64,000 nucleotides of DNA from Candidatus Limnocylindrus sp. ZSMar2m-chloro-G89 (GCA_003670475.1 QWRJ01000002.1:34240-98239); one strand, 5' to 3'; positions 7,655 through 49,231 are shown, counted from the stretch's first letter. Numbers and translations are program-made. Notes: a model not told the origin generated them from the letters alone.

Positions 7655-8146
7655 ATGGCGACAGACAACTCGTTCGACGTGGTCTCCGATTTTGATCGCC
7701 AGGAGATGAAGAATGCCCTGGATCAGACCCGGCGGGAGATTGCCACGCGCTATGACTTCCGTGGCGCAACCGCCGAGATTGAGGAGGAGAAGGCTGAACT
7801 CATCATCCGTGTGGATGGCGAGCTCCGGCTGAAGGCGCTCCGTGACATCTTGGAGTCAAAGGCGGTGAAGCGCGGCATTGATCTGCGAACCTTCGGATGG
7901 GGGAAGCCGGAGGCGGCTGGAAGTGAGACGCTTCGGATTCACGTGAAACTTCGTAGCGGTCTCGATGACCCCACGGCGAAGAAGGTGGTGAAGGCGATCC
8001 GCGACACTTTCCCGAAGGTAAAGACACAGATTCAGGGCGAAACTGTCCGTGTGACCGGCAAGTCACGCGATGAGCTGCAGGCGGTGATGGACTCCCTTCG
8101 GAGTATGGAGTTGGACCGACCGCTGCAGTTTGAGAACTATCGCTGA
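7655..8146 (+). CDS. yajQ: YajQ/UPF0234 family nucleotide (c-di-GMP)-binding protein
   Basis: Full-length similarity to the YajQ family (MATDNSFDVVSDFDRQEMKNALDQ...); AGGAGG SD 7 nt upstream. Confidence 0.85.
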   Translation: MATDNSFDVVSDFDRQEMKNALDQTRREIATRYDFRGATAEIEEEKAELIIRVDGELRLKALRDILESKAVKRGIDLRTFGWGKPEAAGSETLRIHVKLRSGLDDPTAKKVVKAIRDTFPKVKTQIQGETVRVTGKSRDELQAVMDSLRSMELDRPLQFENYR

Positions 8147-8156
8147 GGCGAGGCGG

Positions 8157-9686
8157 GTGACACGCTCGATCAACGAGATCGGAGCTGGACTCGCCCCATC
8201 GCGTCCGGGGGCACCGCTCCTCCTCCCGCTCGCCCTCCATATCGTCGGCATCGGCGGCACTGCGGCGACGGGCGCCGCGCTCCACGCAGCGGCACTCGGT
8301 GTATCGGTCACCGGGTGCGACGGCCACCTGAGCCGCGAAACTGCCCTCCTGCTTGAGGCGGCGGGGGTGCAGGTGAGCGATGAGAGAGACCTCACTCCAG
8401 TGGGTCGCGCCACTCTTGTCGCCGTCTCAAAGGCGATCACGAGTACGCAGCCAGATCATCCGCAGCTCCACGCGGCACGGGCTGCTGGCGTCCCGATCGT
8501 CTCCCTGCAGCAGGTGATCGCGGACGCTGCCGCGAGCCGCGGCGCGCCACTCCTCGGCGTTGCGGGGACGCATGGGAAGACGACCTCCACCGGTTGGCTC
8601 CTCGCCGCGCTCCGCGCGTCAGGGCGCGACCTCTCCGCGTTCGTGGGCGGGCCGCTCCCAGCGGGGCAGGGGAGTCCAGCAGGCTCGCCAATCCACCTTG
8701 GAGCCGAGTCGGGCTTCATCGTGGAGGCGGACGAATACGGCGGGAACTTTGACCCCTACGCCGCAGACGCGGCCCTGATCCTCAACGTTGATTGGGATCA
8801 CCCCGACATCTTCGCCGACCGCGCCGCCGTCGTCGCCACGTTTGTCGCTTGGGGTGCGCCAGTCCTTGGACGCGGTGCGCTCGTGGTGAACGTTGCCGAT
8901 GCTGGCGGCGCAGAGGCGGCTGCCGCGCTTGAGCAGCACGACCAGGGGAGCCTCATTCGCTACGCCGTCCGTGCGCACGGACGCGCAGAGACAGTTGCGG
9001 ATGTGACTGCCGATCTTGAACTCGCCTCAACTGGAACGGTGCAGCTCAACAACCTGACGCTGAGCGAGCGGGGGGCTCGACTCGCCCCTGCGCTCGTTGA
9101 GCTGCAGGGGAAGGCGCTGAAGATTGGCCTCCTAGGCGCGCACAACGCGGCGAATGCGCTCGGTGTGGCAACTCTCGCCGCGACATCAGGAGGAACGGGG
9201 GCGGGGATTGCCGCAGCACTCGCCGGCTACCCAGGGGTGGGGCGGCGGATGGAGGTCCGCTATGACCAGAACGGTATCACCGTGCTCGACGACTACGGCC
9301 ACCACCCCACGGCGATTGATGCCACCATCTCCACGGTGCGCCTCCGCTACCCAGGGCGACCACTCATCCTCGCCATTGAACCGCTGACTTACCACCGCAC
9401 CGCGGCACTCCTCCCTGCGCTCGCGCGCTCATGCGCCGCCGCAGACCGGGTCGCGGTTGCCGACATCTTCGCCGTTCGCGATATGGACCTCACAATCACG
9501 AGCGCTGCGAAGCTCGCCGCCGCGATCAGCGCACTAGGGACGCAGGCGGAGGCCCCAGGCTCTGTTGAGGTCACCGCGGACGCCATCTACGCCGCACTTC
9601 CGGAGGGGGCGGTTGTCCTTGTGATGGGCGGAGGGCGCTCTACGGACCTGGCAACTCGACTCGCTGCGGCACTCGCCGCGCGCTAG
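8157..9686 (+). CDS. murC: Mur ligase, MurC-like (UDP-N-acetylmuramate--L-alanine ligase or Mpl)
   Basis: HIVGIGGTAATGAA N-terminus, GTHGKTTSTGWL P-loop, AHNAANALGV; GTG at 8157 with GAGGCGG SD preferred over ORF-track start 8130, which overlaps yajQ. Confidence 0.65.
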   Translation: MTRSINEIGAGLAPSRPGAPLLLPLALHIVGIGGTAATGAALHAAALGVSVTGCDGHLSRETALLLEAAGVQVSDERDLTPVGRATLVAVSKAITSTQPDHPQLHAARAAGVPIVSLQQVIADAAASRGAPLLGVAGTHGKTTSTGWLLAALRASGRDLSAFVGGPLPAGQGSPAGSPIHLGAESGFIVEADEYGGNFDPYAADAALILNVDWDHPDIFADRAAVVATFVAWGAPVLGRGALVVNVADAGGAEAAAALEQHDQGSLIRYAVRAHGRAETVADVTADLELASTGTVQLNNLTLSERGARLAPALVELQGKALKIGLLGAHNAANALGVATLAATSGGTGAGIAAALAGYPGVGRRMEVRYDQNGITVLDDYGHHPTAIDATISTVRLRYPGRPLILAIEPLTYHRTAALLPALARSCAAADRVAVADIFAVRDMDLTITSAAKLAAAISALGTQAEAPGSVEVTADAIYAALPEGAVVLVMGGGRSTDLATRLAAALAAR

Positions 9687-11293
9687 CTCCCTTCAGGTCC
9701 GCCCGAATACTGATCTGGCCGTGGCGGCTCGCTCCCTGCAACGCGCGCGGCGTGCTCTTGCGCAACTGGGCTAACTGGACGGGCGAAGAGTGGGTGCCCC
9801 TCTGAGGTGAGACATCGGCCACTCGCAAGATCCCACTGCCAGCCGTGGATGCTGCAGGTGAGAGTCTCACCATCCTCCGTGCCGAAGCGTGTCAGATCCG
9901 CCTTCATATGCGGGCAGCGCCGCTGCACCTGCCAGCCGTTCAGGTCAAAGGTTCCCTCGGTGGGGCCATTCTCGGCGTAGAAGCCTTCTGCGTACTGGAT
10001 CCGCGCCACGGAGAGGCACTTGAACCAGGTGTAGAGGTAGTCGTTGTAAGAGCCACGCCGCCAGGCGCTGAAGCGCAGCGAGAGGAAGAGCGAGTTGACC
10101 CAGTCATCGGTCCGCGTCCGGACCAGATGATCGAGGAGGAGGCGGGGGATGGTGAAGCGGAAATCAACGTCGCGCCCGTCGTCAGCGACGACTGCGCGCT
10201 CAGAGAAGTCGAGCAACAGGCTGGTGTCGTCAGTCTGAATACGGACCGGCCCGCCGATCCCATCGCAGACGCGCGGGCCGAGCGCCATCAGCGGCTCAAA
10301 CCACGCCTTCATGTCAGCCAGAAGATCCGTGCGAGGTCCCGCCCACGACGCCTTCTCTGCGGCGATACGTGGCGCCACGTCCTTTGCGTACGTGCGCAAG
10401 TACGCCTCCTTATCAGCAAAGACGCTCTGCACAGACAGTTCGCCCTCTAGATGCTGCACGTCAAACCTTTCGCCATCATTAAATGTACCGATGCTCCCAG
10501 GGAGCATCAGGACCGCCTGCTGGCCTGCCTGTTGTAGGTAGTCAACCATCAGGCGCTGATCCGGAAAGATTGAGTCCTCAGCATTGTTGACGTCGTTCCA
10601 CTGGAAGAGCTCATCGTCAAGGAAGCAGGGGGGTCCCGCGGAGGGAATCACGACGCGGGGACTGATGATCTCCACGTAGCGAGCGGCACGGGCGAACTGT
10701 GCGGCGCGCTTCTTCTTTGCGAGCGCCTCCTTGGCGCGTTCAGGGAGTTCGTAGACCATCGGGTACCAGATGGCGCCGCTGAACTGCAGCAGACAGATAT
10801 CAATCGCTCCTTGCACCAAGAGGCGGTCAGGATCGATCGGCCGGCTGTCATTCAGGTTGAGCAGGCGCTCCACACCGTCGTCCACTAGCAGGGCAGAGTC
10901 GCCGATCGGCCCATCTGTTGGCGCTGTGAGCGCCTCAACGACCAGCGTCAGTCCGCCGTGCTGCACAGGGACGCCAGAGACTGTCTCAATGAACCTGCTG
11001 AAGCCGAGCTCAGTGAGCGCCTCGCGCAGCTCAGGGAGCGGGTAGGCGGGGAGGATGACCGTCGCCTCCTTGCTGCACCAGCGGGCAAGCCACTCAGGGT
11101 CGAAATGGTCTCTGTGGAGGTGGCTGATATAGAGGTAGTCCGTGGCGCCTAAGGCGGCGTGATCAAGACCATCGTTTCGTGGGTACGGGAACCAGCCTGC
11201 GTAGTAGGCCGGGTTGAACCAGGGGTCACAGAGGATGGAGCCGTGGGCGGTATGGATCTTCACGCCAGCCTGAGCGATGAATTCGATCCGCAT
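9683..11293 (-). CDS. MBL-fold metallo-hydrolase fused to C-terminal Rieske [2Fe-2S] domain
   Basis: HLHRDH metal-binding motif in the N-terminal MBL fold; C-terminal CPH...(17 aa)...CSIHGW Rieske CxH/CxxH motif. Confidence 0.7.
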   Translation of the reverse strand: MRIEFIAQAGVKIHTAHGSILCDPWFNPAYYAGWFPYPRNDGLDHAALGATDYLYISHLHRDHFDPEWLARWCSKEATVILPAYPLPELREALTELGFSRFIETVSGVPVQHGGLTLVVEALTAPTDGPIGDSALLVDDGVERLLNLNDSRPIDPDRLLVQGAIDICLLQFSGAIWYPMVYELPERAKEALAKKKRAAQFARAARYVEIISPRVVIPSAGPPCFLDDELFQWNDVNNAEDSIFPDQRLMVDYLQQAGQQAVLMLPGSIGTFNDGERFDVQHLEGELSVQSVFADKEAYLRTYAKDVAPRIAAEKASWAGPRTDLLADMKAWFEPLMALGPRVCDGIGGPVRIQTDDTSLLLDFSERAVVADDGRDVDFRFTIPRLLLDHLVRTRTDDWVNSLFLSLRFSAWRRGSYNDYLYTWFKCLSVARIQYAEGFYAENGPTEGTFDLNGWQVQRRCPHMKADLTRFGTEDGETLTCSIHGWQWDLASGRCLTSEGHPLFARPVSPVAQEHAARVAGSEPPRPDQYSGGPEGS

Positions 11294-41870: not shown

Positions 41871-42374
41871 TCAGCCGTGGTCGAAAGGCCCTGCGATCGT
41901 CTCGCAGGCGTGCTCGAGCACCGGGAGAAGGATGGCGAGGCCGTCCCGAACGGCACCACTGCCGCCCGGCATGTTCACAATCAGACTGCCGCGCAGCACG
42001 CCTGCAACGCCGCGCGAGAGGATCGCCGCCGGTGTCTGCGAACGACCGAGCATGCGAATTGCTTCTGGAATGCCAGGGATCTCTCGCTCAAGGAGCGGCT
42101 TCGTTGCGTCTGGCGTCACATCACGCGGCGTCAGTCCCGTCCCGCCAGTGGTCAAGATGACGTTGACACTCCCCGCGCGTTCACTGAGTAGCGCACTGAT
42201 CTGGTCGCGCTCGTCGGGAACCGTTGCACGGGAGACCTCCCAGCCGTGCGCCTCCATCGCGGCGGCGGCAAGGGTCCCGGAGCGATCTTCGCGCGTCCCA
42301 GCGGAGACTGAGTCGCTCACCGTGACAATAAGGACGCTGCGCTTCTCGTCAGCCATCTCGCCTCCACGTGCCAC
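41871..42374 (-). CDS. mogA: Molybdenum cofactor biosynthesis protein MogA/MoaB
   Basis: TTGGTGLTPRD motif. Confidence 0.85.
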   Translation of the reverse strand: MARGGEMADEKRSVLIVTVSDSVSAGTREDRSGTLAAAAMEAHGWEVSRATVPDERDQISALLSERAGSVNVILTTGGTGLTPRDVTPDATKPLLEREIPGIPEAIRMLGRSQTPAAILSRGVAGVLRGSLIVNMPGGSGAVRDGLAILLPVLEHACETIAGPFDHG

Positions 42375-42834
42375 TCGCGCCGCCGGACTTCTCTAACAAC
42401 TGCGTTGGCCCAATGACCGCTCCGCGGTCAATCGCCTTGATCATGTCGTAGACGGTAAGCGCGGCAACTGAGGCGGCGGTGAGTGCCTCCATCTCTACTC
42501 CCGTCTGTCCGGTGCAGTGCACCTCGGCACGGATCGTTACCGCACCAGCGACACGATCCACCGAACAGTCAACCTGCACCAGTGAGAGGGCGAGTGGGTG
42601 GCAGAGTGGGATCAGCTCGGCGGTGCGCTTCGCCGCCTGGACGCCGGCGAGTTCGGCGGTGCTGAGGACCGCACCCTTCGGTGTCTCTTTGCGCTCAATC
42701 AGATCAAGTACTTCGCTGGAGACGGTAACGCGGCTCTCAGCAACGGCGCGCCGATCGGTGATGGGCTTTGCGCCAACATCAACCATCGTCGCGCGCCCGT
42801 CAGCGCCAACATGCGTGAGGCGTCGCTCTTCCAT
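42349..42834 (-). CDS. moaC: Cyclic pyranopterin monophosphate synthase accessory protein MoaC
   Basis: LTHVGADGRATMVDVGAK...LIPLCHPL MoaC motifs. Confidence 0.9.
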   Translation of the reverse strand: MEERRLTHVGADGRATMVDVGAKPITDRRAVAESRVTVSSEVLDLIERKETPKGAVLSTAELAGVQAAKRTAELIPLCHPLALSLVQVDCSVDRVAGAVTIRAEVHCTGQTGVEMEALTAASVAALTVYDMIKAIDRGAVIGPTQLLEKSGGASGTWRRDG

Positions 42835-42843
42835 GCGCTGATC

Positions 42844-44274
42844 CTAGCCGTTTGGCGCGGTGATGCGACGTGATGCGCGCGGAAGTGGATGCAGCTCAAT
42901 CGCTTCGCCAGCGGCGTATTCGCCGACCTCTTCTGGCACGACCCCCAAATAGTCGGTCCGCGCCAGCACTGAGACCTGATGGCTCCCCTGCTCCCCTGCC
43001 AGTCGTACCCGCACGCGACCTGAAGGATCGTGCAGCGGTGCACCATCTTCATCGCGGAGTGCAGCGAGGCGAAGGAAGGAGCGCCTCCCAAGCGGACTCT
43101 CGACGCGCTCCTCAAGCAGTCCCACAGCTCGTAGCCCGCGTGCCGGTCGTCCAGCAAGCGCCCGAAGGAGTGGGAGCGCAACCTCAACGCCTACGACAAA
43201 CGCACTCACCGGATTCCCAGGGAGGCCGATTGCCCAGAGTGCACCGTCGCCACCAGCGCGCCGTCGACCGAGGAGCAGTGGCTTCCCCGGCTGAATTGCA
43301 AGGCGCCAGACGACCAACTCAAAATGCGTTGCGAGCGCTGCACCAACATGATCGTGCGCCCCCACGCTGACTCCTCCTGTTGTCACCAGGAGGTCAGCCT
43401 GCGCGGCGAGCGCCGCAACGACCGCGCCGGTTGCCTCCGCCGTATCGCCAACATGTGCACGCGCAACAACCTCGCCCCCTTCGGCGGCAATCAGCGCAGC
43501 GAGAGCGGGGCCATTACTGTCGCGAATTCCTCCATCAGCCGCGTTGTTGAGCAGTTCGTCGCCTGTCGTTAGAAGCGCAACCCTTGGTCGCCGCACCAGG
43601 GAGAGATCCGCTGCGCCACTCGAAAAGATGACGGCGAGCAGCCCAGCATCAATAGCTGCACCAGCTTCAGCGAGAAGACTCCCCACGCGCTGATCCTCAC
43701 CGCGTCGGCGAATGTGCGCACCGACTTTGACGCCACCGCTCACCCATACATGCGCTGGAAGCTGCGCTGGGACGCGCTGCAGTAGTACTCCGCCGCGATC
43801 TGGATCCGCGATGCTGCTCCGCTCCACAGGGATCACCGTCGTGCCGCCTTGTGGAATCGGTGCTCCAGTTGCGATGCGCTGACACTCCCCATCGCGCAGC
43901 GGCGTGGCACTGAGTGCGTGACCTGCAGCCGCATCTCCAACACAGGTCAATCGGCGCGGTGCGCCGCTGGACGCTTCAGCTGCATCAGCCAACGTCGTAA
44001 CCCAGCCATCCATTGCCGAAACATCAAATGGGGGGTGATCAACAGCCGCGCAGAGCGGCTCGGCGAGCGTCCGCCCGATCAGCGAGGCGGCCGTCTCATC
44101 GCTGACTGCGATTCGCTCCGCAGGGAGCGGCGTGACCTGCGCCAAGAGGCGGACAAGAAGATCGTCAATCCGCTCAAGCTCCGCTGGAACCGGCTCGCTC
44201 ACTGCAGGCTCTGGAGCAGAAGGATTGAGGCGATCGCTCCGAGCGGTGCGTTGAGCCAGAGGAATCGGCGCCAT
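42844..44274 (-). CDS. moeA: Molybdopterin molybdenumtransferase MoeA (true start probably about 30 codons inside the ORF)
   Basis: MoeA domains incl. MogA-like central domain TTGGVSVGAHD; ORF-track start would overlap the upstream gene by 76 nt. Confidence 0.85.
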   Translation of the reverse strand: MAPIPLAQRTARSDRLNPSAPEPAVSEPVPAELERIDDLLVRLLAQVTPLPAERIAVSDETAASLIGRTLAEPLCAAVDHPPFDVSAMDGWVTTLADAAEASSGAPRRLTCVGDAAAGHALSATPLRDGECQRIATGAPIPQGGTTVIPVERSSIADPDRGGVLLQRVPAQLPAHVWVSGGVKVGAHIRRRGEDQRVGSLLAEAGAAIDAGLLAVIFSSGAADLSLVRRPRVALLTTGDELLNNAADGGIRDSNGPALAALIAAEGGEVVARAHVGDTAEATGAVVAALAAQADLLVTTGGVSVGAHDHVGAALATHFELVVWRLAIQPGKPLLLGRRRAGGDGALWAIGLPGNPVSAFVVGVEVALPLLRALAGRPARGLRAVGLLEERVESPLGRRSFLRLAALRDEDGAPLHDPSGRVRVRLAGEQGSHQVSVLARTDYLGVVPEEVGEYAAGEAIELHPLPRASRRITAPNG

Positions 44275-45743
44275 GCAGCACGGGCCGCCCCCCAGTTTGG
44301 CCTCCCACGAAGAAGTGGGAGCACCGAGCAGCCGCTTGCGATCGGAATAGCCGCAGCGAGCTGCATCAGCACGGACGGCTGAGCCAAGAGTGGCAGCGCG
44401 GCGAGCAGATAGGCCAGCAGAATCACCCGCGAGGTGCGGCGCTCCCCAAGCAGTGTTGCGACTGTGGCAATCCCGCTTCGCTTGTCAGCCGACACATCTT
44501 GCAGCGCACCAAGCGCATGGCTCGCAACGCCCCAGAGCGCAAGCGCCAGAAGCGGCGCAATCCACGCCGAATCCAGCGTGACGCCGAGGAGGAGCCCTGC
44601 GATCGGCGGGATCAGGAAGTGTATTGAGGAGACAACGGAGTCAAGGAGCGGGACCGCACGCGCCCGTACGAACCAAGGAGCGCTGTAGAGCGTTGCAAAG
44701 AGGATCGCAATGAGCGGCATAAGGTTCGCCGGCGCAGGGAGGGCGATCGCCATAATCAGCGCTGGCACCAGACCTGCAGCCACGAGTGCAACGCGAAGTG
44801 GAGCGAGGTCGCGCCCGCGAAGGAGCGCACCCTCCGCACCACCCTTGCGCGGATTTGCCGCGTCACTGGCACGGTCATAAAGATCATTGATGCCGTAGAG
44901 GTAGAGGTTGTACCCAGCTCCCCACCAGAGGATCGGAGCAAGCAGCCATCCGCCGAGCGCCTCCCCAGCACCGGCCGCAAGCACGCCTCCAACGAATGGG
45001 AGCGCGGTGTTCACCCAGGAGATTGGCCGCGCAGCGAGGAAGATCCTCCATGCGCTCCCCTCCCCTAGCAGCACCTCTGCACGCAAGCGCAACGCCACAC
45101 CTGCGAGCCCGACGGCATAAAGAAGATCCTCGACCGGCGCTGTGCCAAGCAAGACGCCACTACGTGGCTCCCCTGGATACGTCAGCACTCCTAGGTAGCA
45201 GAGCACGTTATCGAAGATCAGTGTCAACACGATGAAGACGAACGCAGCGACGCGCGTACCATGATCGCGCCGCAGTAGTTGCGCAGCAAGCGCCACCCCC
45301 GCTCCAGCAAGCACTCCAGCTGCAACGCTGTATTCAGCACCACTCAGGATCGCCAGCAGCAACCCGCCACTCAGTGCGCCAATGCAGGCATCAAACACGC
45401 CACGGCGAAGTCCCAGTGTGACGCGACTCGCAACCCTCCCCTTCCCGAAGGCATCCGCAACAACCACAAGGAGTGATGTGATGCCGAAGAGGAGGAGTGG
45501 CTCTTCAATTGGGAACCCGCGACCGAGAGGGCCAGCGCCAGGGAGGGAGAGTGCCGTTGCGCTAGAAGGAGTCGCAAACCATCCCCGCGCGAGCCCAACC
45601 GTATCTACGAGCAGAAAGCCAATTGTCGTTGCGATCACAACTGGAAGAAGCACGTCGCGTCGCATCTGCCGACTCCAGCGCAGCGCAAGGCCACGGATGC
45701 CAACGATCGAGCCGATGATCGAAAGCAGATAGAGCGCGCTCAT
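44199..45743 (-). CDS. Fusion protein: two lycopene-cyclase-domain (CrtYcd-like) repeats + UbiA-family prenyltransferase; candidate carotenoid elongase/cyclase
   Basis: PxE(E/D) cyclase-domain motifs (GFPIEEPLLLFG; APVEDLLYAVG) in two N-terminal 3-TM repeats; UbiA Asp-rich motifs NDLYDRASD and DVSADKRSGIAT in the C-terminal half. Confidence 0.65.
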   Translation of the reverse strand: MSALYLLSIIGSIVGIRGLALRWSRQMRRDVLLPVVIATTIGFLLVDTVGLARGWFATPSSATALSLPGAGPLGRGFPIEEPLLLFGITSLLVVVADAFGKGRVASRVTLGLRRGVFDACIGALSGGLLLAILSGAEYSVAAGVLAGAGVALAAQLLRRDHGTRVAAFVFIVLTLIFDNVLCYLGVLTYPGEPRSGVLLGTAPVEDLLYAVGLAGVALRLRAEVLLGEGSAWRIFLAARPISWVNTALPFVGGVLAAGAGEALGGWLLAPILWWGAGYNLYLYGINDLYDRASDAANPRKGGAEGALLRGRDLAPLRVALVAAGLVPALIMAIALPAPANLMPLIAILFATLYSAPWFVRARAVPLLDSVVSSIHFLIPPIAGLLLGVTLDSAWIAPLLALALWGVASHALGALQDVSADKRSGIATVATLLGERRTSRVILLAYLLAALPLLAQPSVLMQLAAAIPIASGCSVLPLLRGRPNWGAARAAWRRFLWLNAPLGAIASILLLQSLQ

Positions 45744-46490
45744 CTATCGCCTCCGTCGTCGTGCGGCACGAAAGCCGGCCGCCGCGGTAACGACTAGCAC
45801 GGCACAGAATCCGATCGCTGCCGCCACCCAGAAGGTTTCGGGGTAGAGCCGCACCAGGCGATCCGTTGCAGGATTAAATGTCCAGGTCCCTGCTGGGAAG
45901 AGCAGCTGATGTGCTGCGGTGAACGTTGCATCAAAGGCGAAGAGGAAGGCGCCTCCAACGAGCGCAGCTCCCGCACCAAGCAGCACCGCTCCATCGCGAA
46001 CCCCTCGCAGCACCCATCGTCTTCGTCGAATGGCGAGCACTGAGAGAAGAGCAAGCGCACCTGCGCCGAAAAGAACGAGTCCGCGAAAGAGCAGACCGAC
46101 ATCCACAAGGTGCGAGCGTTCAGCAGCGCTCAAGAAGATCTCGTCGCCCAGTTGTGCGTCAAAGGCTCCACCGAAGAGGAGATCGCGTACCAGCGCATCA
46201 GAGAGCGCATACGCAGTCGGTGCTTCAACGCCGAGAAGGGCGGGGGCGCTCGCAAGGTCGAGCAGCGCATGGACGACGGGTGGAAGAAGGAAGAGGAGTA
46301 GCGTGAGGGCGAGCAGCGCAACCAGTACCGCAACGGCCAGCAGCGCTCGCCGCGCTACGCGGCGCAACGCTTTCACGCGTCGACGAGGACGCGACCCTGC
46401 TCCCACCATGACCTGACTGAGAGGGGATCTGGCGCAACTCGTCCAAGCAGCACTGCCGCTCGCGTTACCGCAGCCTGAAAGTCTCCCCAC
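45744..46490 (-). CDS. 4-TM integral membrane protein of unknown function (possibly DUF1461/TIGR01906-like)
   Basis: Four predicted hydrophobic helices; stop abuts the start of the downstream fusion gene. Confidence 0.45.
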   Translation of the reverse strand: MGRLSGCGNASGSAAWTSCARSPLSQVMVGAGSRPRRRVKALRRVARRALLAVAVLVALLALTLLLFLLPPVVHALLDLASAPALLGVEAPTAYALSDALVRDLLFGGAFDAQLGDEIFLSAAERSHLVDVGLLFRGLVLFGAGALALLSVLAIRRRRWVLRGVRDGAVLLGAGAALVGGAFLFAFDATFTAAHQLLFPAGTWTFNPATDRLVRLYPETFWVAAAIGFCAVLVVTAAAGFRAARRRRR

Positions 46491-46762
46491 TCGCTCTCCG
46501 CGAGTACCTGGATCCCGGGGTAACCCGCCGCTGCGAGCAACTGATGTTCCGATGGGCCGAAGAAGGCAAGATTCAGGAGCAGCGCTTCATCACGCCACTC
46601 GCCAACATCGGCAAGGGAGGCGTCGGTCTGGTCGGCGAGGGTCTGGCGACGCGTTGGCGTCTCGCTCCGTTCAAGGAGGAGGCCCGTCGTGAAGATCCCC
46701 TGCGCCTCAAGGCGCGCGAGGTGGACCGGCTCAATGCGGGTGAGCTGAACGATCGCTGGCAT
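46373..46762 (-). CDS. Small soluble protein, tentatively DUF4332 (tandem HhH-like repeats)
   Basis: MPAIVQLTRIEPVHLARLEAQGIFTTGLLLE and LNLAFFGPSEHQLLAAAGYPGIQVLAE repeat pattern; start placed at internal Met. Confidence 0.4.
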   Translation of the reverse strand: MPAIVQLTRIEPVHLARLEAQGIFTTGLLLERSETPTRRQTLADQTDASLADVGEWRDEALLLNLAFFGPSEHQLLAAAGYPGIQVLAESEWGDFQAAVTRAAVLLGRVAPDPLSVRSWWEQGRVLVDA

Positions 46763-46863
46763 CAGTACCTCCTCGCGGCATCGTAGCGCCTCCCCCCTCA
46801 CAGGCGTGCCGAGGTGGGCAAATTGTTACAATCACCAGCCTGCGCAACGCCTCGGGGGCAACG

Positions 46864-46891
46864 CGAAACTTTCGGTCGTTTGCGCCATAAT
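46864..46891 (+). promoter_or_regulatory. Putative rhodopsin promoter: 11-bp palindrome CGAAACTTTCG at the -35 position + CATAAT -10
   Basis: Palindrome at about 46864-46874, CATAAT at about 46886-46891, about 45 nt upstream of the rhodopsin ATG. Confidence 0.3.
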
Positions 46892-46936
46892 CAGCCCAGC
46901 GGTGCGTTGTGCCGTAAACAAGGTTAGGGAGGGTCA

Positions 46937-47680
46937 ATGAGTCCAGAGATGGGATATCAGTTGGTCTATAACTTTATGTCCCTCGCCATCGCGGCGATGG
47001 GTGCGAGCTTCTTCTTCTTCGTCTCCGCAAGGGGATCGCTGAAGGAAGGGAACCGCATGGCAGTCACGCTGTCAGCCACTGTTGTGCTGATCGCGTTCTA
47101 TCACTACGTCCGCATCTTCGACTCGTGGGTCGCCACGGCGGGTGTCGGAAATCCAGGCGCGTTCAACGAGGGCTACCGCTACGTTGACTGGCTCCTCACG
47201 GTGCCACTCCTCGTCGCAGAGTTGATCCTCGTCCTTCGCTTGGACAAGAAGGTTGAGAGCAAGCTGATCCAGCGAAATGTGCTCTACGCCTTCCTCATGA
47301 TCGCAACCGGATACATCGGCGAGCTGGATGTCCAGACCTCCGTGGTTCTTGACTCCTCACGCACGATCTGGGGCGCTATCAGCACGATCTTCTTCGTCCT
47401 GATCCTGCGCGACCTCTTCGGTGGCATCGAGGCCTCCTTCAAGAGGCAGAGCAAGGAGATCCAGGGGATCTTCAAGGTACTTCGCGTTGTGCTTATCGCC
47501 ACGTGGGGTGTCTACCCAATCGCCTATCTCCTTCCAACGATTTCGACCAGCCTCGGCCTGACGGCTGGGGACGGCCTCGTGCTAAAGCAGATTGGTTACA
47601 CGATCGCGGACATCCTGGCGAAGCCAGGCTACGGTCTCCTCATTTGGAAGATCGCAACCCTGAAGAACTCAGGCCGCTAA
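46937..47680 (+). CDS. Type-1 microbial rhodopsin, DTE motif (predicted light-driven outward proton pump), xanthorhodopsin-like antenna-site Gly
   Basis: Helix C RYVDWLLTVPLLVAE (D84/T88/E95); helix G DILAK (D225, Schiff-base K229); retinal pocket WGVYP; W145-G146 where bR has W137-W138; 7 TM helices; GGGAGGG SD. Confidence 0.85.
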   Translation: MSPEMGYQLVYNFMSLAIAAMGASFFFFVSARGSLKEGNRMAVTLSATVVLIAFYHYVRIFDSWVATAGVGNPGAFNEGYRYVDWLLTVPLLVAELILVLRLDKKVESKLIQRNVLYAFLMIATGYIGELDVQTSVVLDSSRTIWGAISTIFFVLILRDLFGGIEASFKRQSKEIQGIFKVLRVVLIATWGVYPIAYLLPTISTSLGLTAGDGLVLKQIGYTIADILAKPGYGLLIWKIATLKNSGR

Positions 47681-47715
47681 ATCGATCAAACACGCGACTC
47701 GTGTCGCGTAGAGAA

Positions 47716-47745
47716 GGCCCGGGGGAGACCCCGGGCCTTTTCATT
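47716..47745 (+). terminator. Strong Rho-independent terminator after the rhodopsin gene
   Basis: GGCCCGGGG-GAGA-CCCCGGGCC followed by TTTTCATTT. Confidence 0.7.
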
Positions 47746-47792
47746 TCCTGCCGATGCTGGGGCTTGAGCACGCCACGCGCTACGCTGCGGCT

Positions 47793-48071
47793 ATGTCGCA
47801 GCAGAAGAATCCGACGCAGGCCCGCTTCCGAGTGCGCTGGCGCTACTTCGTCACACTAGCCTCCCTCTGCGCGGTGGCTGCCGTGTTTCCGATCCTTCTC
47901 GTTGCCGCGCACTTCACACTCAACGGCTTCAAAGGGAACGCGTTTGATGAGAACGGCTACGGCGTATTCCTATGGCTCCTCATCATCACCGTGCCGTTTA
48001 GCATCGCTGCCTTCGTGCTCGGCACCATCGTCGGTGCGCTCGTTGAGATCGTGCGCTACATACGCCGATAA
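47793..48071 (+). CDS. Small 2-TM hypothetical membrane protein
   Basis: ORF with two hydrophobic helices; no recognisable family. Confidence 0.35.
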
Positions 48072-48127
48072 CTGCACGTATTGGGTTGAATCTGTTGCTT
48101 CGCATTCGAGCGGAGCAGTGGTCGGAG

Positions 48128-48204
48128 CGACAGGATTTGAACCTGCGACCTCTTGCCCCCCAGGCAAGCGCGCTACCAAGCTGCGCTACGCTCCGTTCGA
48201 TTTG
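48128..48204 (-). tRNA. tRNA-Pro (anticodon GGG), CCA encoded
   Basis: Minus strand CGGAGCGTAGCGCAGCTTGGTAGCGCGCTTGCCTGGGGGGCAAGAGGTCGCAGGTTCAAATCCTGTCGCTCCGACCA. Confidence 0.8.
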
Positions 48205-48232: not shown

Positions 48233-49231
48233 CTAGTGCCACTCCCCTGTTGGAGCGCGGCCCAAAAGTCCTTGGGCGAGACGCTCAATAGAGACGCCGT
48301 GTTCAAGTGCGGCAACCACCGCGGCGGTGATGGGAATCTCCACGCCGAGCTTTGCGGCGAGCTGTAGCGCGCCATGCGCGGTAGGGATCCCCTCAACGGT
48401 CGCGCCGATCTTCTCCACGGCGGCAGCGACGGGCATTCCAGAGGCGAGCAGCTCGCCAAGACGTGCATTGCGCGAGCCGGTATTTGATGCGGTGAGCGCA
48501 AGGTCACCAATGCCGGCGAGTCCGAAGGCGGTTTCGCTGCGTCCACCGCACGCCTCAGCGAGTCGCGCCATCTCCGCAACACCACGCGCTAAGAGGGCGG
48601 CGGCGGCATTCTCACCGTAGCCGAGAGAGCGGATAGCGCTCACGGCGATCGCGAGCACATTCTTCAGCGATCCTGAGATCTCAACGCCGATCGGGTCATC
48701 GCTCAGGTAGAGGCGGAACGTGGGGCGGGCAAGGAGTTGCAGCACTGCGTCGCGGCCCTCACCACGTGCGGCGAGTACCGCTGCGGCCGGCTTCCCTGCG
48801 GCGATCTCCCCTGCAAGGTTCGGCCCAGAGAGGATCAGGATGGATGCCGGATTGGCCCCAGCGGCAGCCGCAGACTCCGAGGTGCGCTCCCCCTCTCGGC
48901 TGAGCCCCTTGGAGGCGATCACGATCTTCGCGGCGCCAGCCCCTGCACGCGGCAGAGCGTGTCGAATTGCGTCTGACGGCACGGCGATCACCAGAAGGTC
49001 CCCTGCGCCGAGTGGAGCAAGCTCCTCTTCAGTTGAGCGCACGCGGACCGATGGAGAGAGCGTGGCGCCAGCAAGGCGGCGGGGATTCTGATGGCTCGCG
49101 GAGATCGCCGCCGCCTCAGCGGCGGTGTGTGCGATCAGCTCAATCTCGGCGGTGGGTGTGCCTTCTTGCGGATGGCTCCAGAGTGCGGCGAGCGCGGTCC
49201 CCCAGGCGCCAGCGCCAAGGATGCGAATCAT
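48233..49231 (-). CDS. gpsA: NAD(P)H-dependent glycerol-3-phosphate dehydrogenase
   Basis: ILGAGAWGTALA Rossmann N-terminus; GpsA core. Confidence 0.9.
   Translation of the reverse strand: MIRILGAGAWGTALAALWSHPQEGTPTAEIELIAHTAAEAAAISASHQNPRRLAGATLSPSVRVRSTEEELAPLGAGDLLVIAVPSDAIRHALPRAGAGAAKIVIASKGLSREGERTSESAAAAGANPASILILSGPNLAGEIAAGKPAAAVLAARGEGRDAVLQLLARPTFRLYLSDDPIGVEISGSLKNVLAIAVSAIRSLGYGENAAAALLARGVAEMARLAEACGGRSETAFGLAGIGDLALTASNTGSRNARLGELLASGMPVAAAVEKIGATVEGIPTAHGALQLAAKLGVEIPITAAVVAALEHGVSIERLAQGLLGRAPTGEWH

Follow-up and report, generated by a model that had tools for sequence, protein, structure and literature searches.

The stretch of DNA considered here, 64,000 nt from Candidatus Limnocylindrus sp. 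ZSMar2m-chloro-G89 (GCA_003670475.1 QWRJ01000002.1:34240-98239; the window in what follows), has a G+C content of 60-67% and a gene content that is nearly all housekeeping, and within it a rhodopsin gene on the plus strand (46937-47680, 247 aa) stands back to back with a minus-strand run of genes. This run opens with a DUF4332 gene (46373-46762), whose product is a soluble protein of 129 aa and whose raw open reading frame (ORF) extends to 46801; it continues with a gene for a membrane protein of the Lit/DUF1461 (TIGR01906) family (45744-46367, 207 aa, in a gene model that follows those of the orthologous loci L001 and L084), and it reaches a gene (44199-45743) whose product, a membrane polypeptide of 514 aa, would unite in a single chain two halves of a carotenoid cyclase and a UbiA domain. 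Between the two arms lies a divergent control region of 174 nt (46763-46936, assigned to neither strand), defined on an alignment of 10 orthologous spacers. The coordinates were taken from the listing of ORFs, from Pfam and NCBIfam matches, and from gene calls on orthologous contigs, the L-numbers being the labels of the loci and contigs compared. A first-pass annotation, made from the sequence by itself, had described this divergent arrangement of a rhodopsin against a DUF4332-like gene, a four-transmembrane (4-TM) protein and a fusion, and all the genes are found in the places that it gave them.

The rhodopsin has the seven-transmembrane (7-TM) fold of its family, with 138 bits against Pfam Bac_rhodopsin (PF01036), and NCBI already has an entry 100% identical to it, 'MAG: xanthorhodopsin [Candidatus Limnocylindrus sp. 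ZSMar2m-chloro-G89]' (MAG, metagenome-assembled genome), which places the window in the freshwater SL56 / Limnocylindraceae lineage of Chloroflexota, one with a streamlined genome. The closest solved structure is the xanthorhodopsin (XR) of Salinibacter ruber (3DDL, E 9e-54), and in the ranking of PDB entries XR, psXR, GR, Kin4B8 and the TR of Thermus come in at E 1e-54 to 1e-44, with Na+ pumps, Cl- pumps and PR far weaker, at 1e-24 or beyond. The resemblance to XR extends from the 7-TM fold to the residues that define the pump: the Schiff-base lysine would be K229, in 'ADILAK', opposite 'ADVLAK' in XR; the DTE motif is formed by D84, T88 and E95 in 'RYVDWLLTVPLLVAE'; and the histidine partner of the counter-ion, which completes the H-D pair, is H56 in 'YHY', all of them aligned to their XR equivalents. 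To these can be added L92, a position of green tuning, as well as D225 and T201, the latter equivalent to M211 of XR and S208 of Kin4B8. By homology, this is a xanthorhodopsin-clade outward proton pump encoded by a monocistronic gene. The rhodopsin is considered a gain of the Limnocylindraceae, the soil relatives being without it (PMC13212565).

The glycine of the carotenoid site, to which the first reading of the sequence had drawn attention, is indeed in place: 'IWG146AIST' stands opposite 'LWG156FLST', in such a way that G146 corresponds to G156 of XR, the residue that opens the fenestration. Among the matches listed, 108 of 120 family members retain the motif, and the remaining 12 failed the search pattern. 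The same 120 matches were all from within the family, hence the rhodopsin offered no independent neighbourhoods for comparison. Glycine is found at this site in ~55% of environmental XRs (preprint 10.1101/2022.08.24.505090), and it is a necessary feature of an antenna, not a diagnostic one.

Downstream of the rhodopsin lies an intrinsic terminator (47713-47745, plus strand), recognized by its RNA fold and its conservation, in which a GC-rich stem of 14 bp is followed by the T tract TTTTCATTT. The segment 47681-47760 folds at -44.7 kcal/mol (z = -5.6, with 0 of 200 shuffles equally stable), and the terminator sequence is retained in L084 and L005; a simple terminator scan had overlooked it. The G+C content at third codon positions (GC3) of the rhodopsin gene, 0.78, is the maximum of the window and comparable to that of infC and efp. 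The gene is probably, as far as such signals indicate, a self-contained and strongly expressed unit. A conserved hairpin in the 5′ untranslated region ahead of the rhodopsin was also considered and was found unconvincing, as RNAalifold gave only 5 pairs, 1 of them compensatory.

The gene that had been taken for a carotenoid-modifying enzyme in the vicinity of the rhodopsin would in fact encode one, composed of two cyclase halves and a UbiA domain of the lycopene-elongase type. All three parts lie on the minus strand: residues 1-125 (45369-45743) form a first cyclase half similar to CrtYe/LbtA, assigned by a family hidden Markov model (HMM) and by its motif; residues 126-232 (45048-45368) form a second half similar to CrtYf/LbtB, assigned from Pfam, TIGRFAM, BLASTP and HMM matches; and residues 233-514, with the stop codon (44199-45047), form a UbiA-fold domain of elongase type (CrtEb/LbtC), assigned from Pfam, NCBIfam and an AF2 model. 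Both cyclase halves are three-helix half-domains of ~100 aa that carry a PxE(E/D) motif, as in the heterodimeric type of cyclase, the motifs being P78-I-E80-E81 in the first and P203-V-E205-D206 in the second; in the AF2 model (pLDDT 78) the cyclase helices span residues 2-23, 32-53, 80-100 / 112-133, 137-159, 161-183, 204-226. These motifs, and those of the UbiA domain (N286-D287-x2-D290-x3-D294 and D416-x3-D420), are invariant across sequences that are only 48-75% identical.

The first half is invisible to the curated Pfam and TIGRFAM models, which detect only the second, and its family HMM matches the first cyclase-subunit ORF in 45 actinobacterial clusters for C50 carotenoids (best E 3.6e-12) and the split subunit of two Chloroflexota clusters, L089 and L090, at E 1e-16, the best score of this profile. 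The HMM of the second half matches the second cyclase-subunit ORF in ~54 actinobacterial loci (best E 3.6e-18), with E down to 6e-21 overall, and by BLASTP this half matches CrtYf of Glutamicibacter at E 9e-11. The UbiA domain scores 71 bits against Pfam PF01040 and is 36-44% identical to the CrtEb of idi-crtE-crtB-crtI-crtYe-crtYf-crtEb clusters, and in the AF2 model it matches the UbiA folds 4TQ4 and 4OD4 (Foldseek TM 0.6-0.7). Three NCBIfam models named 'prenyltransferase' rank best for it, while the UbiA, MenA, CyoE and ChlG models, corresponding to quinones, haem and chlorophyll, stay below 27 bits. Homology, in short, shows a CrtYe/LbtA, a CrtYf/LbtB and a CrtEb/LbtC component in one chain, with the domains in the same order as the genes of the C50 pathway; the predicted product would be a cyclic C50 xanthophyll, with rings of the beta, gamma or epsilon type.

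The distribution of this fusion was followed in one genome per species, for 185,579 species, and by HMMER, residues 1-232 being run exhaustively against 1.84 billion protein representatives. In the species genomes the full-length form is found in Limnocylindrus- or Aquidulcis-type MAGs only. Among the 38 HMMER matches there are three full-length representatives, of 514-519 aa, one cluster of which was looked up and proved to be Ca. Limnocylindrus, and the next in rank are subunits of 97-123 aa from Micrococcales. Outside the family, the species scan found the nearest relatives in Actinobacteria, for example Microbacterium, Leucobacter, Glutamicibacter, Paenarthrobacter and Leifsonia, where the counterpart is the last gene of the idi-crtE-crtB-crtI-crtYe-crtYf-crtEb cluster, and the three parts of the fusion are collinear with three adjacent genes in 45-54 actinobacterial C50 clusters and in the two from Chloroflexota. 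The CrtYe-CrtYf-CrtEb set of Corynebacterium glutamicum, which leads to decaprenoxanthin, and the clusters of Microbacterium, Glutamicibacter and Paenarthrobacter are the nearest actinobacterial homologues and share this gene order; however, there the genes are separate or only partly fused, and no rhodopsin is found within 8 kb.

The fused enzyme had been called non-canonical, and this stands as regards the union of three parts, but a fusion of cyclase and elongase is not without precedent: in Dietzia, LbtBC joins one cyclase subunit to the elongase, and its cyclase part together with LbtA constitutes a C50 beta-cyclase (PMC6393565, PMC6669644). The resemblance to the LbtA/LbtBC system of Dietzia sp. 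CQ4, which makes the beta-cyclic C50 carotenoid C.p.450, includes the in-frame union of a cyclase subunit with the elongase and the order A, B, elongase. The differences are that LbtA is there a separate protein, in contrast to the single chain of 514 aa in Limnocylindrus, at ~40% identity, and that the Limnocylindrus gene stands apart from crtE, crtB and crtI, beside a rhodopsin. The second cyclase subunit also shares the stop-to-stop frame of CrtEb in many Actinobacteria (Paenarthrobacter, Leucobacter, Arachnia, Microbacterium), for instance in L031, L033, L036, L038, L041, L062 and others, at ~7850-9080, therefore two-part fusions of the LbtBC type seem to be common beyond Dietzia. In the literature no description of the three-part fusion in Chloroflexota was found. 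What is new is the complete three-part fusion, its confinement to a single family and its position beside the rhodopsin, detached from crtI-crtB; already known were cyclase-elongase fusions as such and, for this lineage, the rhodopsin and a possible antenna (PMC6169038).

An enzyme of this kind would need lycopene, and no other crt or retinal gene is present in the 64-kb window or in up to 10 kb past either end. A second locus was sought in a metagenome collection with the CrtI of the two Chloroflexota C50 clusters as queries, and ~24 lake contigs with a G+C content of 61-66% were recovered, with the conserved arrangement acs <- iclR | crtI -> crtB. These are L113 (8875-12479) and ~23 others like it (L092-L110, L161-L168), where crtI-crtB is divergent from a regulator of the IclR type and lies beside the gene for acetyl-CoA synthetase (ACS). 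The lineage would have its lycopene branch at this second locus, because the ACS and NhaA of these contigs cluster with named Ca. Limnocylindrus proteins at an identity of at least 90%. Neither a cyclase nor a UbiA gene was found at the crtI-crtB locus of the lake contigs. Conserved GTCAAT and TACGAT boxes are present upstream of crtI in these Limnocylindraceae loci.

The two Chloroflexota contigs offer a possible view of the earlier arrangement. In L089, a relative of high G+C content, acs and iclR are followed by a first cyclase subunit (102 aa), a second (102 aa), a UbiA-GT2 fusion, crtI and crtB, and L090 shows an identical order of the five genes; in both, the elongase is joined to a GT2 glycosyltransferase in a protein of 685-730 aa (L089, 7391-12665; L090, 7343-12732). 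They belong to the same phylum as Limnocylindrus, and the acs, iclR, crtI and crtB flanks are 57-70% identical (ACS 70%, CrtI 66% and CrtB 57% for L089); unlike the Limnocylindrus gene, their cyclase subunits are separate (102-117 aa), their elongase is bound to the glycosyltransferase, and they have no rhodopsin. According to this comparison, the ancestral order in Chloroflexota would have been cyclase1-cyclase2-elongase(-glycosyltransferase)-crtI-crtB in one place; in the Limnocylindraceae the three C50-specific parts would have left the cluster and merged into a single ORF, with loss of the glycosyltransferase, and the fused ORF would have come to lie beside the rhodopsin, which the family itself had gained. 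As for horizontal gene transfer, a descent of the fusion from Actinobacteria is neither supported nor excluded, the resemblance in sequence being ~40% to actinobacterial and Chloroflexota split genes alike.

The order rhodopsin, DUF4332, Lit and fusion is present in 23 of 23 informative loci belonging to two genera; six further loci of the family stop short of this position and were left out. The genes of the region differ in how closely they are kept between the two clades, the identity being ~86% for nrdR, ~83% for the rhodopsin, ~80% for der, ~75% for DUF4332, 74% for mogA, 63% for gpsA, 55-58% for the UbiA part of the fusion, ~52% for Lit and 41-47% for the cyclase part of the fusion. As a whole the fusion evolves fast, with ~50% identity between genera.

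The spacer between the two arms holds an element, TTGTTACA, at 46823-46830, which is conserved throughout the family in the 10 spacers aligned and occurs once in the window, against 0.19 expected, and a -10-like box, CATAAT, at 46886-46891. In the spacers of the Aquidulcis type (L014, L017, L020, L028) it forms part of a palindrome, TTGTTACA-N6-TGTAACA, after which there is a second inverted repeat, TTGCGAAAT...ATTTCGCAA. The palindrome and the second repeat look like a pair of putative operator sites for a regulator, and through this common divergent spacer the pigment operon may share a light-dependent control with the pump.

With respect to the two small co-oriented proteins, which the first-pass annotation had counted as uncharacterised members of a module, both are present, but the supposed 4-TM unknown belongs to the Lit/TIGR01906 family, and a deletion affects the two of them. 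The DUF4332 protein matches Pfam PF14229 at E 4.6e-11 and is 75-90% identical across the family, a conservation that is nearly that of the rhodopsin and well above that of Lit and the fusion; a structure model from the single sequence (pLDDT 46) gave no usable fold. The 207-aa protein scores 61 bits against PF07314, above the cut-off of 24, and falls short of TIGR01906 (57.9 versus 74.8) and of the Lit equivalog NF051877 (30.6 versus 400), and on these scores it is a distant member of the Lit/TIGR01906 family only. The search for Lit homologues returned matches from within the family only among the 120 listed, and so no independent neighbourhoods. In L003, a locus of the Aquidulcis type, a deletion of ~780 nt has taken away DUF4332 together with ~120 residues from the N terminus of Lit and has left the rhodopsin and the fusion intact, which speaks against DUF4332 and Lit being essential to either of them; the deletion is located at ~9600-9710, relative to positions 6928-7708 of L014.

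Beyond the fusion the minus strand continues into molybdenum cofactor (Moco) genes, assigned with Pfam and NCBIfam, namely moeA (42844-44202, with a likely GTG start), moaC (42349-42834) and mogA (41871-42374), and the operon is also trailed by nrdR and dcd. From DUF4332 through Lit, the fusion, moeA and moaC to mogA the spacings are 5, 0, -4, 9 and -26 nt. That the genes overlap or abut was correctly noted at first sight, although it is the norm here, as the median gap between genes on the same strand in the window is 6 nt; likewise, the passage into the Moco genes without a terminator agrees with a terminator scan that remained at the level of chance (5 sites versus 4.6 expected). What does not hold is that the tight coupling of a carotenoid gene to Moco genes is unusual enough to be a clue. 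The coding density listed for a Limnocylindrus MAG is ~95% (PMC13212565 supplement), and together with the median gap of 6 nt it makes the coupling an effect of genome compaction. Moreover, 15 loci of the Aquidulcis type have neither moeA nor moaC, mogA there directly following the fusion, and this sister clade, with the overlap of genes across the window, rules out the coupling as a functional clue. Since only mogA is kept in the sister clade, the synthesis of Moco may be incomplete there. For the moeA product, the NCBIfam model of a gephyrin-like divisome protein, Glp, scores slightly above MoeA, both of them far under their cut-offs.

On the other side, behind the rhodopsin terminator, are found an ORF of 105 aa with two transmembrane segments (2-TM; 47754-48071, plus strand, from the ORF listing), a tRNA-Pro (GGG) on the minus strand (48119-48195, ARAGORN and Rfam) and, according to the gene map, gpsA (48233-49231, minus strand). 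The 2-TM protein and the tRNA had been described as flanks and both are there, but the former does not belong to a module: the ORF lies within an insertion of ~367 nt (~47751-48118) between terminator and tRNA which is present only in L005 (96%) and absent from L084 and L001, whose rhodopsins are nevertheless 98% and 94% identical, no gene having been called at the site in L001. It was discarded as a strain-specific indel placed behind the terminator. The GC3 of the ORF is high (0.77), and the insertion may mark a small variable spot beside the tRNA. Neither the Moco genes nor the 2-TM ORF is counted as taking part in pigment or rhodopsin function. An Rfam scan of the region found three tRNAs only, with no riboswitch or other known RNA. 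Elsewhere in the window, a protein of 536 aa (9683-11293, minus strand) combines a C-terminal Rieske [2Fe-2S] motif with an Rv3818-like SCP2 domain, from Pfam on the L087 orthologue; it is mentioned since a formation of retinal independent of blh would need an oxygenase.

If these elements are brought together, the reading that we favour, with a probability of about 0.55 and so only slightly better than even, is that an XR-type pump and a single-chain C50 synthase constitute a lineage-specific kit for life in the light. The lycopene would be delivered from crtI-crtB at the separate locus; the elongase domain would attach C5 units to its ends, which the two cyclase halves would then close into rings; and the rhodopsin would harvest the energy of light as a pump. 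The pigment would most likely act in the membrane and in photoprotection, the role with which C50 carotenoids are generally credited (PMC12422013). It counts in favour of the kit that the freshwater Microbacteriaceae, too, pair an XR-like rhodopsin with crtYe/Yf and crtEb (PMC7734400, PMC12422013).

Several observations weigh against this reading. The role just given to the pigment is a default assumption, not a finding. In the enzyme, the second cyclase half stays below the curated cut-offs (21.1 bits versus 27 for PF18916 Lycopene_cyc, and 31.7 versus 39.4 for TIGR03462), and the best NCBIfam model for the UbiA domain, PRK13105 'prenyltransferase', reaches 203.7 bits where the cut-off is 217, a near miss because of which we name the domain elongase-like and not a certified member. 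The N-terminal domain has diverged strongly, only 38 matches at E<1e-3 being obtained in the 1.84 billion representatives, and, although the closest stand-alone cyclase subunits come from clusters of the C50 type, the fused cyclases of the C40 type (233-249 aa) are only ~10-fold weaker. Between the domains of the fusion and their split counterparts in L089 the identity is 37-42%, versus 66% for CrtI, and with the actinobacterial genes it is ~40-44%; at so low an identity to the L089 parts a relocation and a replacement by a foreign copy are therefore indistinguishable. As for regulation, no operator common to the rhodopsin/DUF4332 spacer and the iclR/crtI spacer was found, TTGTTACA being absent from the crtI loci. 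And finally, the whole region of ~20 kb is collinear in both genera, because of which the adjacency of rhodopsin and fusion is weak evidence of function, explicable by common descent and not by selection for linkage: the co-localisation in relatives that the first-pass annotation had proposed to check is complete for rhodopsin and fusion, but, shared as it is by an entire syntenic region, it does not count as independent evidence.

The pigment could have a closer relation with the rhodopsin than that of a shared way of life. A cyclic C50 xanthophyll tied functionally to the rhodopsin, either as the first C50 antenna of an XR or as the ringed precursor of the chromophore through a blh-independent route held in common with freshwater Actinobacteria, is a tentative idea to which we accord a minor share of probability. 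The supplementary tables of two papers on Limnocylindria held no usable carotenoid or blh data for the lineage.

In the first of these forms, the ring of the C50 carotenoid would dock in the Gly146 fenestration and hand on blue-green excitation to retinal, in the manner of salinixanthin in XR and of lutein or zeaxanthin in Kin4B8, an idea of XR with antenna that was published for this very lineage in 2018 (PMC6169038). The glycine speaks for it, and with it the retention of the equivalents of L148, T160, I205 and Y207 among the contacts of salinixanthin in XR, a polar Thr201 in the place of M211 of XR and S208 of Kin4B8, as in binders of hydroxylated xanthophylls, and the invariant adjacency of rhodopsin and fusion. 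Against it, four further contacts are changed with respect to Salinibacter ruber XR (F157A, N191V, M208L, M211T), the glycine is as widespread in environmental XRs as noted above, and the adjacency is confounded by the synteny of the whole region. Furthermore, every antenna demonstrated is a C40 xanthophyll of the 4-keto or 3-hydroxy kind, with no C50 antenna known, and the rings of C50 carotenoids bear a bulky C5 substituent; the Limnocylindrus rhodopsin differs from Salinibacter XR, GR, psXR and Kin4B8 also in that its neighbouring pathway is, by homology, C50 and not one of C40 ketocarotenoids or xanthophylls. Nor is a pathway of its own required for an antenna, because fenestrated rhodopsins can bind xanthophylls of their surroundings, as Kin4B8 took them up from lake extract (10.1101/2022.08.24.505090). 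An antenna role of the C50 pigment is possible, the fenestration glycine being what it would rest on, and we consider it rather unlikely.

Only slightly less likely is that the rhodopsin and the fusion are neighbours by descent only, in a compact and syntenic genome, pigment and pump being then no more closely related than any two functions of the membrane. The collinearity and the short gaps already described speak for this, the same operon holds the unrelated Moco genes and then nrdR and dcd, an operator shared with crtI-crtB did not appear, and in other Chloroflexota and in the 54 actinobacterial C50 clusters there is no rhodopsin within 8 kb. However, rhodopsin and three-part fusion are both restricted to one family, the C50-specific genes have quit what would have been their ancestral operon and are now beside the rhodopsin, and an unrelated freshwater phylum shows the same pairing of C50 genes with a rhodopsin of the XR-like kind, all of which makes a mere juxtaposition unlikely.

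The second form of the closer relation, in which the fusion would make a ringed precursor that an oxygenase cuts to retinal or a retinal analogue, is more doubtful still. Central cleavage of a cyclic C50 carotenoid would yield a C25 prenylated analogue, not retinal, and this counts against it, as does the fact that no oxygenase gene was found in the neighbourhood. In its favour, no carotenoid cyclase other than that of the fusion turned up at the crtI-crtB locus or in the ~84 kb that surround the rhodopsin, and a chromophore-pathway gene beside the opsin gene is a classical arrangement (PMC7734400 citing Sabehi 2005). A parallel is offered by Aurantimicrobium minutum, with an XR-like pump, crtYe/Yf and crtEb, no blh and nevertheless retinal, for which a cleavage of the cyclic C50 carotenoid was proposed (PMC7734400), and by the Luna-1 Actinobacteria, with the same gene pattern (PMC12422013); in Aurantimicrobium, too, the hypothesis is unproven. 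These freshwater Microbacteriaceae (Aurantimicrobium minutum, Rhodoluna, Aquiluna) resemble Limnocylindrus in being planktonic monoderms with an XR-like rhodopsin or actinorhodopsin and a C50 pathway; they differ in that they belong to another phylum and in that their C50 genes are unfused and not reported beside the rhodopsin gene. As for the fusion being no carotenoid enzyme, with a UbiA domain that prenylates a quinone, haem or lipid and an N-terminal part that is a degenerate membrane anchor, the label '4-hydroxybenzoate polyprenyltransferase' that JGI pipelines give to some homologues, the scores under curated cut-offs and the fast evolution could be adduced for it, but the invariant PxE(E/D) motifs in both cyclase halves, the match of the three parts, in order, to three genes of proven C50 clusters and the NCBIfam ranking make it highly improbable.

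The kit for life in the light that we favour concerns the Limnocylindraceae, abundant and uncultured lake bacteria whose phototrophy is known from gene lists only, and it would offer a compact set for a test by cloning, as it consists of one opsin gene and one gene of 1.5 kb with the whole finishing branch of the C50 pathway. A natural elongase-cyclase with three parts in one would also be a handy component for the engineering of C50 pathways. If the pigment were only photoprotective, the locus would represent an unremarkable instance of genes being fused and reshuffled as the genome was streamlined. It bears on two questions, those of whether the carotenoids that fenestrated XRs can use go beyond keto or hydroxy xanthophylls of the C40 class, and of where retinal comes from in the freshwater monoderms that carry C50 genes, often without blh (PMC7734400).

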